Shown one piece after another: positions 9,026 through 64,000 of a DNA stretch of 64,000 bases. The notes beneath the pieces are model-generated. The model ran no database searches, had not been told where the DNA came from, and saw nothing but the letters and a program-made list of their open reading frames with translations. Source of the stretch: a virus. Positions within the stretch are counted from its first letter, which is position 1, and every line of letters begins with the position of its first letter. A program made the translations under genes and the position numbers. Where the stretch lies: the IMG/VR virus record IMGVR_UViG_3300028025_000091, positions 109,790 through 173,789 of that record; one strand, given 5' to 3'.

Positions 9026-9607
9026 ATGGAACGCACCAAAATTTACTATCTACATTACGGAAATAATGTACCAATTTATGTAGGAAAATCTAATAGAATC
9101 CAAGGTAGAATATCTAATCATAGAAAAAATTTCGGAAAAGATATTATAGCTGAAGTGTTAGATGATGTACCTTTACATGAATGGAAGTTTTGGGAGTGTT
9201 TTTGGATAGAACAATTTAAACAATGGGGGTATGTTCTTTCAAACAAAAACAATGGTGGTGGAGGAGCTACTAAACAAAATTTTTCCCCTATTAGAAGTCA
9301 AAAAATAAGTAAAGCTAGACTAGGTAAACCTATGCCCCATAAAGGAAAAAAATTCACAGAAGAGCATAAAGAGAAAATTAAATCTACTCGAGGTTTTCTC
9401 CAATCCCGCCCAAATACTTGGACAAATCAACCAGTTCTTCAATATAATTTAGATGGAACTTTTATAAGGGAATTTGGTTCCCAATTAGAAGCTTCGTATT
9501 TTTTACAGGTAAAAGGAGATGGAGTTGGAGCCTGTTGTAGAGGTAAACAAAAATCTGCTTATGGTTACATATGGAAATTTAAAAATATAAAACAACAAGA
9601 ACAATGA
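9026..9607 (+). CDS. GIY-YIG homing endonuclease with NUMOD DNA-binding motifs
   Basis: KIYYL...IYVGKS, EEHKEKI (NUMOD3-like), VLQYNLDG...SAYGYIWK (NUMOD1-like); paralogous to 52043-52732. Confidence 0.8.
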   Translation: MERTKIYYLHYGNNVPIYVGKSNRIQGRISNHRKNFGKDIIAEVLDDVPLHEWKFWECFWIEQFKQWGYVLSNKNNGGGGATKQNFSPIRSQKISKARLGKPMPHKGKKFTEEHKEKIKSTRGFLQSRPNTWTNQPVLQYNLDGTFIREFGSQLEASYFLQVKGDGVGACCRGKQKSAYGYIWKFKNIKQQEQ

Positions 9608-9807
9608 AGACAAAATTTTTACAAAGTGTAGAGAGATACACAAACACGAAAGGAAAAACAGGTTACAAAGCTATTTATAGCAATGGAATTGATTTTCAAA
9701 CATTATTCTTCCCAATTAGAAATGGAGTAGATGTTATTAATATTCCTTCAATTATTAACTCAGTTCAAACAATAGATGATTTAGAAGCTATTGGAGCAGA
9801 ACTTTAA
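9604..9807 (+). CDS. Cassette-borne hypothetical protein
   Basis: Starts at the junction ATG; bounded by junctions. Confidence 0.65.
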   Translation: MKTKFLQSVERYTNTKGKTGYKAIYSNGIDFQTLFFPIRNGVDVINIPSIINSVQTIDDLEAIGAEL

Positions 9808-9819
9808 AAAACAAGAACA

Positions 9820-10047
9820 ATGAAAGAGAAACAATTAACAGCAGTAGAACAAGCAGCAGTTGCTTTAAGATTATGGTCAAATGCTTGGAGGGAATTTGAT
9901 AAGACAGGTAAAAATAAACCTGAATCATTTGAAAAAGTAATTGAACCGTTTATTAAAATGGAGAAGGAGTCACTCCAGGAATCCTATGTTAATGGATATG
10001 CAAAAACCAAAAAGATGCTTATACAATTTAAACAACAAGAACAATGA
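9820..10047 (+). CDS. Cassette-borne hypothetical protein, paralog of 63306-63509
   Basis: Ends KQQEQ; 77 bp identical to 63430-63506. Confidence 0.75.
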   Translation: MKEKQLTAVEQAAVALRLWSNAWREFDKTGKNKPESFEKVIEPFIKMEKESLQESYVNGYAKTKKMLIQFKQQEQ

Positions 10048-10292
10048 AAGAAATCCTTTATTTCTCAGCCAGCTGGTGTATGCCTTGTAAACGCTTCAAA
10101 CCAGTTATGGAACAGGTAGGACAAAGTATACCTGTACGATTTGTAAATGTAGATGAAGACCCTCAATTGTCTTCCCAATACAATATCAGAAGCGTACCTA
10201 CATTGGTATTTTTAAAAGACGGACAAGAAGCAGACAAATCAATCGGAGTTTTAACGGAATCACAAGTAAAAGAAAAATGGAATCTACTTTAG
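10044..10292 (+). CDS. Thioredoxin
   Basis: FSASWCMPCK, IRSVPTL. Confidence 0.92.
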   Translation: MKEILYFSASWCMPCKRFKPVMEQVGQSIPVRFVNVDEDPQLSSQYNIRSVPTLVFLKDGQEADKSIGVLTESQVKEKWNLL

Positions 10293-11059
10293 GAAGAATA
10301 GAAGATTATAACAAAACGTTACCTATTATAGAATTGTATCGTTGCGTTCAAAGCGAGGGATCTCGTTTTGGACGCCCAACGATTGCAGTTCGCACAACAG
10401 GTTGTACTCACCGTTGCTACTTTGGTGAAGGGGGTTGGTGTGATTCTTGGTACACAAGCATCCACCCCGAGAAAGGAACATTCAACTTTAACGATATTAT
10501 TCGTATTTATGATGAAAACCCACATATCAAAGAAATGATGCTAACGGGTGGTTCACCTACTATGCATCCTAAATTGGTTAATGAATTAACACATTTTGCA
10601 CATGAAAGAGGTATTCTCATTACTATTGAAACCGAAGGTTCTCATTTCCTCGCTACTGACTATCCTATATCTCTTATTAGTCTCAGTCCTAAGTTTAGCA
10701 ATAGTGTTCCCGTTGTGGGTGTTGCCACGCCGAATGGTTCTATTACGGATGAGAAGATGGTTACCCAACATAACAAACATCGATTAAAATTAGATACAAT
10801 CAAACAAACACTGGAATACCACTCAGATTATCACTATAAACCAGTTTGGGATGGTACAGAAGAAAATCTAAATGAAATTGAAACATTCCGCTTAGCATTA
10901 GATATCCCTAAAGACAAAACCTATATCATGCCCGCTGGCGATACAAGAGAAGAATTAATTAAAATGTATCCACTTGTATTTGATATGTGTGCTGAAAAAG
11001 GATACAACATGACAGGAAGAGATCATATTATTGCATTTGACACTAAAAGAGGAGTATAA
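10277..11059 (+). CDS. queE: 7-carboxy-7-deazaguanine synthase (radical SAM)
   Basis: QSEG...G.P...VR..GC..RC.......CDS, LTGGSP, IETEG, LSPK. Confidence 0.92.
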   Translation: MESTLGRIEDYNKTLPIIELYRCVQSEGSRFGRPTIAVRTTGCTHRCYFGEGGWCDSWYTSIHPEKGTFNFNDIIRIYDENPHIKEMMLTGGSPTMHPKLVNELTHFAHERGILITIETEGSHFLATDYPISLISLSPKFSNSVPVVGVATPNGSITDEKMVTQHNKHRLKLDTIKQTLEYHSDYHYKPVWDGTEENLNEIETFRLALDIPKDKTYIMPAGDTREELIKMYPLVFDMCAEKGYNMTGRDHIIAFDTKRGV

Positions 11060-11256
11060 TGAAAAGAGAAACACCAATGAAAAGACCAAAACGTAAAGAA
11101 AAACACCTCCATATGGTTACTTGGGATGGTACACGTTATGAATCAATTAACATGCCTGATTATTTAGCAGATGACTATGTTAGAGAGTTTGATTTAGTAC
11201 ATACCCCAAAAACTATTGAATTAAAGGAATGGATTAATAAAAAAACCAGGAAGTAG
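11059..11256 (+). CDS. Hypothetical protein
   Basis: 65-aa ORF coupled to the queE stop. Confidence 0.5.
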   Translation: MKRETPMKRPKRKEKHLHMVTWDGTRYESINMPDYLADDYVREFDLVHTPKTIELKEWINKKTRK

Positions 11257-11297
11257 ATAATTATCCGTTAGGTATCTGATATGTATAATAAAAACAG

Positions 11298-62854: not shown

Positions 62855-62866
62855 ATAACAAGAACA

Positions 62867-63109
62867 ATGAAACAAGACAAAGAAATTGGGTATTACAACC
62901 TAACACCTAAAAAGGAAACACTTAAACAAGTTGCTGAAAAATTTGCGGAAGGTGTTGATGGTGTTATAGTTAAAACAAATTATGTATACACGGAGACTGA
63001 TTTAAGAAAGGCTTGTTCTTTAATATTCCTAGCGTTAGGAGATGGTGGTGATATAACAACAGATGAAGTTATTCAGTCTATTAATCAACTTAAACAACAA
63101 GAACAATGA
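62867..63109 (+). CDS. Cassette-borne hypothetical protein (copy 1)
   Basis: Ends KQQEQ. Confidence 0.7.
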   Translation: MKQDKEIGYYNLTPKKETLKQVAEKFAEGVDGVIVKTNYVYTETDLRKACSLIFLALGDGGDITTDEVIQSINQLKQQEQ

Positions 63110-63309
63110 AACTATTTAAAAGTAATTGGGGACAATGGACAGATATATCAACCTCGGGTTATATGGAATACAGATGTGTCCTTCAAGCTAGAAGACATAA
63201 AAACGGAAAACTACAATATCGATTAGAAAAAATTAATGAAGTTAAAACGTGTCAAAACCCAACACTTGAGCAATTAGAAAAAGTAACCTTTAAACAACAA
63301 GAACAATGA
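63106..63309 (+). CDS. Cassette-borne hypothetical protein (copy 1)
   Basis: Ends KQQEQ. Confidence 0.7.
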   Translation: MKLFKSNWGQWTDISTSGYMEYRCVLQARRHKNGKLQYRLEKINEVKTCQNPTLEQLEKVTFKQQEQ

Positions 63310-63509
63310 AGACAGTAGTAGAACAAGCAGCAGATGCAACCTTTATAACGTCAAATGCTTGGAATGAGTTTGACAAGACAGGTAAAAATAAACCAGTATC
63401 AATTGAAGAAGTAATTGAACCATTTATTCAAATGGAGAAGGAGTCACTCCAGGAATCCTATGTTAATGGATATGCAAAAACCAAAAAGATGCTTATACAA
63501 TTTAAATAA
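63306..63509 (+). CDS. Cassette-borne hypothetical protein, paralog of 9820-10047
   Basis: MKTVVEQAA...IQFK. Confidence 0.75.
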   Translation: MKTVVEQAADATFITSNAWNEFDKTGKNKPVSIEEVIEPFIQMEKESLQESYVNGYAKTKKMLIQFK

Positions 63510-63517
63510 CAAGAACA

Positions 63518-63760
63518 ATGAAACAAGACAAAGAAATTGGGTATTACAACCTAACACCTAAAAAGGAAACACTTAAACAAGTTGCTGAAAAATTTGCGGA
63601 AGGTGTTGATGGTGTTATAGTTAAAACAAATTATGTATACACGGAGACTGATTTAAGAAAGGCTTGTTCTTTAATATTCCTAGCGTTAGGAGATGGTGGT
63701 GATATAACAACAGATGAAGTTATTCAGTCTATTAATCAACTTAAACAACAAGAACAATGA
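63518..63760 (+). CDS. Cassette-borne hypothetical protein (copy 2 of 62867-63109)
   Basis: Identical sequence. Confidence 0.7.
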   Translation: MKQDKEIGYYNLTPKKETLKQVAEKFAEGVDGVIVKTNYVYTETDLRKACSLIFLALGDGGDITTDEVIQSINQLKQQEQ

Positions 63761-63960
63761 AACTATTTAAAAGTAATTGGGGACAATGGACAGATATATC
63801 AACCTCGGGTTATATGGAATACAGATGTGTCCTTCAAGCTAGAAGACATAAAAACGGAAAACTACAATATCGATTAGAAAAAATTAATGAAGTTAAAACG
63901 TGTCAAAACCCAACACTTGAGCAATTAGAAAAAGTAACCTTTAAACAACAAGAACAATGA
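63757..63960 (+). CDS. Cassette-borne hypothetical protein (copy 2 of 63106-63309)
   Basis: Identical sequence. Confidence 0.7.
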   Translation: MKLFKSNWGQWTDISTSGYMEYRCVLQARRHKNGKLQYRLEKINEVKTCQNPTLEQLEKVTFKQQEQ

Positions 63961-64000
63961 AGACAGTAGTAGAACAAGCAGCAGATGCAACCTTTATAAC

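Follow-up and report, generated by a model that had tools for sequence, protein, structure and literature searches.

The DNA analyzed here (the window) forms the final 64 kb of the IMG/VR virus record IMGVR_UViG_3300028025_000091, a 173,789-bp sequence rated complete, which we label G000. It carries arrays of small genes joined by a repeated stop/start junction, the 18-mer AAACAACAAGAACAATGA. Ten copies are exact and five have one mismatch; all lie on the + strand, compared to 0.06 copies expected in shuffled sequence. A first-pass annotation of the window had listed these copies and read them as the borders of an integron-like gene-cassette system; all fifteen were recovered at the same positions, and an open reading frame (ORF) begins at the ATG of each. 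The junction copies and the genes and repeats that accompany them are as follows.

9590-9607, + strand: exact junction copy at the left edge of array C; its TGA ends a GIY-YIG endonuclease gene (9026-9607) and its ATG starts the cassette 9604-9807
9806-9823, + strand: junction copy with one mismatch; its ATG starts the cassette 9820-10047, a paralogue (89% nucleotide identity) of 63306-63509
10030-10047, + strand: exact junction copy at the right edge of array C; its ATG starts a thioredoxin gene (10044-10292)
32133-32154, + strand: left copy of an exact 22-nt direct repeat flanking array D, at the 3′ end of the gene 31951-32154
32154-33787, + strand: array D, with junction copies at 32154, 32354 (one mismatch), 32695 (one mismatch), 33410 and 33770
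32168-32347, 32368-32712, 32709-32894 (family F0), 33424-33771 and 33784-34155, + strand: cassettes of array D
32906-33427, + strand: array D cassette without the motif upstream
34134-34155, + strand: right copy of the exact 22-nt direct repeat flanking array D
56771-56788, + strand: isolated, diverged junction with two mismatches, reading KEEEQ-stop; it ends 56555-56788 and starts 56785-57018
62437-62445, + strand: early-promoter-type box TCGTATATT, ending 5 nt before the first array A junction
62451-62468, + strand: first array A junction, exact; it would make up the entire leader of the cassette 62465-62854
62853-63309, + strand: array A junctions at 62853 (one mismatch), 63092 and 63292, with the cassettes 62867-63109, 63106-63309 and 63306-63509
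63503-64000, + strand: tandem repeat, 100% identical to 62852-63349, with junction copies at 63504, 63743 and 63943

At 8 of the 15 listed copies (9607, 10047, 32712, 33427, 63109, 63309, 63760 and 63960), the TGA of the junction closes the preceding ORF, and the proteins that end there finish in KQQEQ, or in KKQEQ at 32712. The claim that the junction gives unrelated proteins a common ending was thus borne out at these eight copies. The two-mismatch copy at 56771 was absent from the earlier list. Besides the three clusters in the window, the genome contains a fourth array (array B, genome 87931-88836, outside the window). When all genomic sites were ranked by Hamming distance, 13 had no mismatch, eight had one, two had two and three had three, followed by background. 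Since these distances split into two separate groups, the motif is a discrete element and not the tail of a continuum of A-rich start contexts. The genome as a whole holds 23 copies with zero to two mismatches in four arrays.

Array A runs on from the end of the record into its beginning, with copies at genome 90-768. In the relatives L126 and L067, the region of 62470 is joined to genome position 758; thus, the end of the contig leads into its start, and the two parts of array A form one array. Judged from these joins, the record is probably a circularly permuted one that broke on the array repeats. The tandem repeat at the end of the window (498 bases, period 651) has its boundary on a junction copy, and since the copies at 63504, 63743 and 63943 lie inside an identical duplicate, they are not independent of the others. 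A contig piece from the Logan assemblies that covers 62852-63013 has a depth of 52, compared to ~25 for the neighboring genome, which is consistent with two repeat copies but does not prove them.

To describe the element beyond G000, we compiled a site profile of 315 sites (295 distinct) from 118 IMG/VR loci and G000. This revealed a conserved core of ~22 nt, yT-AAACAACAAGAACA-ATG-AAA, with flanks that are random beyond ~22 nt. The base directly before the 18-mer (its position -1) is T in 92% of copies, which gives TAA in the frame of the following ATG, and the A after the ATG gives TGA in a second frame. Both stops are used: among about 290 sites, the built-in TGA closes the preceding ORF at 127 and the TAA does so at 52, and 88% of copy-to-copy spacings fit the two frames that use the built-in stops. 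Within each locus, all copies lie on one strand at a fixed distance from the ATG. ORFs beginning at the copies are short (median 67 amino acids). Elsewhere, the motif forms a leader with no upstream ORF, following directly on a promoter box, on a terminator-like hairpin or on a tRNA-like end.

Conservation extends to synonymous positions. Among KQQEQ-stop sites that were not used for locus selection, 116 of 118 carried the exact 18-mer, compared to 22% predicted from codon usage. As synonymous variants are almost absent, conservation is at the level of the nucleotides. Part of this constraint may be translational. In Flavobacterium johnsoniae, A at -3, -6, -12 and -13 are positive determinants of initiation (PMC6847099, Baez et al. 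2019). Reading the motif directly against these determinants revealed A at all four positions, as the first-pass annotation had proposed. The predicted unpaired probability over -18 to +6 is 0.745 at the motif, compared to 0.585 at other small genes. By sequence and folding prediction, the motif therefore has the features expected of an efficient initiation region in Bacteroidia: four As, weak predicted structure and no Shine-Dalgarno sequence.

The genome that carries these arrays is that of a T4-like phage. G000 has ~240 ORFs, nearly all on one strand, whose starts have A-rich upstream regions and no Shine-Dalgarno signal. It encodes a gp43-type DNA polymerase that is 26-32% identical to those of cyanomyophages, together with GroEL, thymidylate synthase, a clamp loader, a UvsX-like recombinase and a DnaB-like helicase. 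A 646-amino-acid phage protein (genome 95335-95562, outside the window) has a C-terminal sorting domain for type IX secretion (41 bits); because this domain is encoded, a Bacteroidota host is indicated for G000. The hosts of the uncultivated phages that carry the motif are probably Bacteroidota as well. The cassettes are small, promoterless, same-strand ORFs, as first described, and a predicted promoter-type box lies directly ahead of an array in array A only. There, the proposed early promoter box is present, although 5 nt and not 6 nt ahead of the first junction, and the suggested likeness to an integron's common promoter (Pc) applies to this one array. The early-type box, (T)TCGTATATT, occurs in ~30 intergenic regions at both contig ends (window 41442-62445; genome 1-12 kb), with ten copies in the window compared to 0.7 expected. 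A separate late-type box, TATTTATAATAAA, occurs elsewhere in the genome. Promoter-proximal genes have a different context before the start, AAAGGTT or AAAAGTT ahead of the ATG.

The most direct evidence for exchange at the junction, all of it from sequence comparison, comes from close relatives. When array C was compared with L010, array B with L038, and array A with L126 and L067, the flanks were 80-98% identical and the array contents had been replaced. In all three arrays, identity stops a few bases past the first copy and resumes at the T before the last copy. For array C, homology to L010 (97.7%) stops 4-7 nt after the copy at 9590 and restarts (84%) at 10029. For array A, homology to L126 ends just past the first copy (62451-62468). 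The first-pass annotation had asked if the breakpoints of gene change between relatives fall on the 18-mer; in these three arrays they do, and close relatives differ in cassette content.

Comparisons across the 118 loci point in the same direction. Cargo families recur between loci in shuffled order, and the ends of homology blocks pile up 1-2 bases ahead of the motif and at its last bases. In 26 blocks of at least 85% identity, both ends fall on the motif in each of the two loci compared. L110 and L119 have one cassette in common, at 100% identity, and nothing else; in other cases, one cassette was transposed and a single cassette was inserted. Overall, motif-bounded single cassettes share 84-100% nucleotide identity between otherwise unrelated phages. 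This includes G000, whose cassettes are 84-94% identical, motif to motif, to those of loci from an unrelated, siphovirus-type lineage; 63090-63310, for example, is 84% identical to L056 and L085 from one motif to the next. Homology blocks stop at 78-87% of the motif boundaries they reach, compared to 32-60% of other gene starts, in pair counts that are not independent. In the assembled Logan contigs, joints at motif copies have sides of 22-25 letters that are indistinguishable from repeats, and in run X1, loose contig ends at 63109 and 63285 show other cassettes beside the same junctions, which may stem from other phages. Runs in which only a small share of the sequence words occurs give no indication of habitat.

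At the site of array D, the whole 2.0-kb block is absent in 46 of the 57 relatives that cover the site, and the other 11 hold inserts of 258-770 nt. One relative, L265, has only the cassette 33409-33775 (92.9% identity). The 22-nt repeat that flanks array D occurs as a single copy, with no array, in relatives, and the native junction at this site has only AAACAA in common with the motif. Since the array is flanked by a native 22-nt repeat, it presumably entered a motif-free genome through microhomology or another route, such as integration of a circle. In sequence, the repeat is consistent with either circle integration by short homology or a duplication associated with repair.

We determined how widely the junction occurs. 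The exact 18-mer is present in more than 118 viral contigs of IMG/VR, from many metagenomes; of the 118 loci, 74 have at least two copies and 17 have at least five, spaced by ~215 nt. Among 185,579 bacterial and archaeal species genomes (596 Gb), there were only single hits, chance-like and spread over all phyla, and no clusters. Because the hits in bacterial genomes are scattered and single, the motif is not a host signal. Against deposited phage genomes, a megablast search with two array regions gave no matches and a 41-nt junction query gave only chance-level hits. Our literature search found no paper that mentions the 18-mer, or KQQEQ in a relevant sense.

Most carriers are not relatives of G000, and the junction is common in the siphovirus-type lineage. 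In 64 of the 118 loci, the array adjoins genes for an exonuclease, an Erf-like annealing protein and a NinG/Rap endonuclease, with replication-loader and terminase genes nearby; the nearest cultured relatives of the exonuclease are from Flavobacteriaceae phages (31-41% identity). Five larger records of this type have one cluster each, with 2-5 copies. We drew two samples irrespective of the motif. In loci fetched by the siphovirus-type exonuclease, 32 of the 45 with enough downstream sequence carry the motif, with the first copy 201-985 nt behind the gene. In this sample, ACAACAAGAACA-ATG lies ahead of 67 genes, spread over 41 of 75 loci, and is followed by 50 different sequences; it is multi-copy per locus, in contrast to almost all other recurrent upstream 12-mers, which are found once in each locus. 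The second sample consisted of 80 relatives of G000, fetched by their clamp loader (73-96% identity), and only two of these carry the motif. The view of the motif as a feature of G000's own lineage is thus not supported. Since it is common in the first sample and rare in the second, it is no lineage-wide initiation signal and travels with the cassettes.

We also examined which enzymes could carry out exchange. The first-pass annotation had reported no integrase and no attC-like palindrome in the window, and extending the search to the whole genome gave the same result. No match to tyrosine or serine recombinases (PF00589, PF00239) was found in the complete 173.8-kb record, and the profile of 295 distinct sites revealed no attC-like conserved palindrome flanking the motif; the region is predicted to be unpaired. 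The annotation had further proposed that a recombinase or single-strand annealing protein be sought elsewhere in the genome. G000 does encode the UvsX-like recombinase, whose gene, together with an exonuclease gene, adjoins array B, but we found no Erf in G000. Thus, the idea that the junction is a recombination site is supported by the homology breakpoints and the motif-bounded shared cassettes, but not in the form of a dedicated site-specific system or site.

The model we favor, and consider rather likely to be correct, is that the element is a portable translational junction, lacking a Shine-Dalgarno sequence, and that it also provides the short homology at which crossovers shuffle cassettes. 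The junction would travel with small promoterless accessory genes of uncultivated phages. On the mRNA, the upstream ORF would be terminated by TAA in one frame or by the TGA of ATGA in another, and the junction would then offer the next ORF an unstructured, A-rich initiation region with no Shine-Dalgarno sequence. Because the junction supplies both a stop and an initiation region, a cassette could be translated anywhere in an early operon. We infer that ribosomes terminate and restart on the junction, including by translational coupling. On the DNA, the copies could act as crossover points for the general recombination machinery because all are identical. The enzymes would be the UvsX-like protein and exonuclease in G000, and the exonuclease and Erf-like annealing protein in the siphovirus-type lineage; exchange is presumably carried out by these general enzymes. 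Through crossovers there, cassettes would be exchanged, gained, duplicated or lost, both within a phage and between unrelated phages, with no dedicated integrase. The exactness of the motif is best explained if copy-and-exchange (concerted evolution and selection for transferability) acts together with selection for translation. A broader version, which we put forward tentatively and hold to be doubtful, is that T4-like and siphovirus-type phages of one host group share a pool of promoterless genes through a universal 22-nt stop/start adaptor that ensures both translation on arrival and homology for exchange, with exactness maintained mainly by selection for transferability.

Several observations weigh against the model of a translational junction that doubles as a crossover point. 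The same gene families are found both with and without the motif, and decayed forms of the motif exist. At nine orthologous positions in diverged pairs, the motif is perfect at only four, so individual genes can do without it. Known determinants of initiation in Bacteroidia do not account for the invariant bases, C at -11, -8 and -2 and G at -5. A second recurrent junction, (T)AAATCAGAATAAG-ATGA, which reads KSE-stop, one base, then ATG, shares arrays with the canonical one; it occurs in at least 120 viral stretches, with up to four copies per locus (L389, L392, L405, L408, L477 and others). A length of 18-22 nt is short for homologous recombination. Gene boundaries that lack the motif also break often, at the 32-60% given above, and at least four indels between G000 and L010, one of them 9.5 kb, lie elsewhere than at the motif. 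At the array D site, 10 of the 11 inserts in relatives lack the motif, and array D itself is flanked by the repeated end of the native upstream gene and not by two motif copies. Gene change is not exclusive to the motif, since motif-less insertions and replacements are common in the same relatives. Finally, the evidence for roles in translation, coupling and recombination is indirect.

We considered whether the motif could instead be an operator for a trans-acting regulator of translation, either a protein or a small RNA, with exchange as a by-product. The targets of T4 RegA offer a parallel for a translational operator. Such a regulator would account for the letter-perfect conservation, including the C and G positions outside the known initiation determinants, and for the marking of only a subset of early and accessory genes, and one of this kind has been proposed for the start-associated sequences (SAS) of cluster K mycobacteriophages (PMC3203893). 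However, the same gene families manage without the motif, which decays at orthologous sites, and a second junction type occurs in the same arrays. Moreover, the motif is present in two unrelated lineages and is sporadic in one (2 of 80), such that a phage-encoded regulator would need to travel with it, and the small families that co-occur with the motif contain no informative domain. A RegA-type repressor was ruled out, as the RegA profile (PF01818) has no match in G000. We consider an operator unlikely. It is more improbable still that the motif has no function and represents the native 3′ end of F0 genes (YYNETF-KQQEQ-stop) plus the start of F0, spread by tandem duplication and hitch-hiking. 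F0 is indeed the commonest cargo (55-64 members), is often in tandem and typically ends in ETFKQQEQ, and a motif-like native junction also follows family F3, whose proteins end in NEEQ-stop. But an F0 origin does not fit the presence of the motif before 50 different downstream sequences and at the end of many unrelated proteins, the near absence of synonymous variants, or the leaders that have no upstream ORF.

We regard a dedicated site for an unknown site-specific recombinase, which would make the arrays a true integron analogue, as very improbable. Such a site would explain breakpoints confined to the motif, the directionality of the arrays and the proximity of siphovirus-type arrays to recombination genes. 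However, these neighbors (the exonuclease, Erf-like and NinG/Rap genes) have general recombination functions, the complete genome lacks a tyrosine or serine recombinase, and the motif has no palindrome and no conserved flank; it is asymmetric and its position is set by the start codon. Equally hard to credit, or slightly more so, is a role as a signal in transcription, with the motif acting as promoter for a phage polymerase or a modified host polymerase, or a role as cleavage site for the homing endonucleases encoded beside arrays B and C. Short, exact, directional repeats ahead of genes do resemble phage promoters, but this one includes the ATG and carries stop codons in two frames that close upstream ORFs, G000 already has separate early and late boxes, and the Bacteroidota -7 box (TAnnTTTG) is not enriched upstream of first copies. 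As for endonucleases, the GIY-YIG gene at 9026-9607 and a second homing-endonuclease gene at genome 88884-89507, which adjoins array B, do abut two arrays; however, two of the four arrays have no endonuclease gene beside them, and the ten annotated conserved families that neighbor the arrays of siphovirus-type loci include none.

The favored junction model invites comparison with known systems. In integrons, the tyrosine recombinase IntI acts on attC hairpin sites, and promoterless cassettes lie behind a common promoter. The arrays described here are similar in consisting of small, promoterless, unrelated ORFs on one strand with a repeated boundary element, in having one array behind a predicted promoter, and in differing in cassette content between relatives. 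They differ in having no IntI and no attC, in that the boundary is a translational junction and the carriers are lytic-type phages, and in that exchange most likely proceeds via general short-homology recombination. The modular theory of Susskind and Botstein, and the later "boundary sequences," reportedly proposed that short conserved sequences at gene borders guide the homologous exchange of modules. The linker sequences of lambdoid phages are weak and disputed, and the linker hypothesis lost ground to illegitimate recombination followed by selection. In contrast to lambdoid linkers, the junction is exact, multi-copy and tied to many different genes. To our knowledge, the promoter early stem-loop (PeSL) cassettes of T4-type phages are among the few documented exceptions to the view that illegitimate recombination predominates.

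PeSLs are repeated regulatory motifs that precede small ORFan genes in hyperplastic regions; each consists of a sigma-70-type promoter and a stem-loop terminator followed by a Shine-Dalgarno sequence, mini-circles have been shown, and exchange is attributed to homologous recombination (Arbiol et al. 2010, PMC2839356; Comeau et al. 2014, PMC4122927). Like PeSLs, the junction is a short repeat before small genes in hyperplastic regions between core genes of a T4-like phage, and the end points of indels and replacements between close relatives (here L010, L038 and L126) fall in the repeat. Unlike PeSLs, the 18-22-nt junction has no promoter hexamers, since the early box is a separate element, and no stem-loop, as it lacks a conserved inverted repeat and is predicted with high probability to be unpaired. 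It contains stop and start codons, so its cassettes are promoterless, and it is common, letter for letter, in an unrelated siphovirus-type lineage and rare in the T4-like one.

The SAS of cluster K mycobacteriophages occur in 11-19 copies per genome, have a Shine-Dalgarno core and lie 3-7 bp from the start; they are suspected of a role in translation, are absent from the host genome and follow gene families across genomes (Pope et al. 2011, PMC3203893). Both SAS and the junction are asymmetric repeats in one orientation that directly precede the start codons of some of the non-structural genes, sometimes with the upstream stop codon inside the repeat. Both are also absent from host genomes, as judged for the junction by the lack of clusters in the 185,579 species genomes. 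The junction differs in lacking a GGAG-type Shine-Dalgarno core, in abutting the ATG and in not being faithful to gene families, and no role in gene exchange has been reported for SAS (PMC3203893). By analogy, the junction may be viewed as a translational counterpart of both the PeSLs of T4-type phages and the SAS of cluster K.

How phages trade accessory genes, which often function in host takeover and anti-defense, is an old open question. The border element described here differs in being tiny, exact, multi-copy, tied to translation and not to transcription, and present across phage families. The 18-mer offers a simple, testable handle for measuring the gene flow carried by short homology. 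If the shared-pool model is true, these phages would have an integron-like function without any dedicated recombinase, and the linker model would gain a clear example from nature. The junction could also serve as a natural adaptor for expression and insertion when engineering phages of Bacteroidota, which ignore Shine-Dalgarno sequences.

The arrays lie in varied settings: between the UvsX/exonuclease genes and the helicase gene, after the clamp loader gene, and beside the thioredoxin gene. Of their cargo, Pfam and PHROGs named only the thioredoxin; one foreign cassette has a domain resembling single-stranded DNA-binding protein, and the others received no assignment. For F0, structure prediction gave a two-helix hairpin (predicted local distance difference test score, 87) whose Atlas neighbors are viral hypothetical proteins. 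When F0 homologues were fetched by protein pattern, five loci were confirmed, two of them with the motif, a sample too small to use.

Several other features of the window were evident. The 9.5-kb block that distinguishes G000 from L010 (11044-20598) contains three large ORFs (1378, 520 and 822 amino acids) with no PHROG match, in place of ~700 nt in L010. The GIY-YIG/NUMOD homing-endonuclease gene at 9026-9607 is 97.7% identical to its counterpart in L010, compared to 80-84% in the flanks, and by sequence looks as if it was recently acquired. A search of 53500-64000 with Rfam matched only three tRNAs and nothing in the arrays. One of these, at 54007-54092, adjoins tRNA-Met and tRNA-Gln(UUG); ARAGORN called it a tRNA with an undetermined two-letter anticodon (tt), and Rfam called the same stretch a tRNA with 49 bits. 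The non-coding stretch 61247-61372 received no Rfam or ARAGORN call and is ~91% identical to the siphovirus-type loci L033 and L024, in which a tRNA-like 3′ end sits directly upstream of a junction copy.

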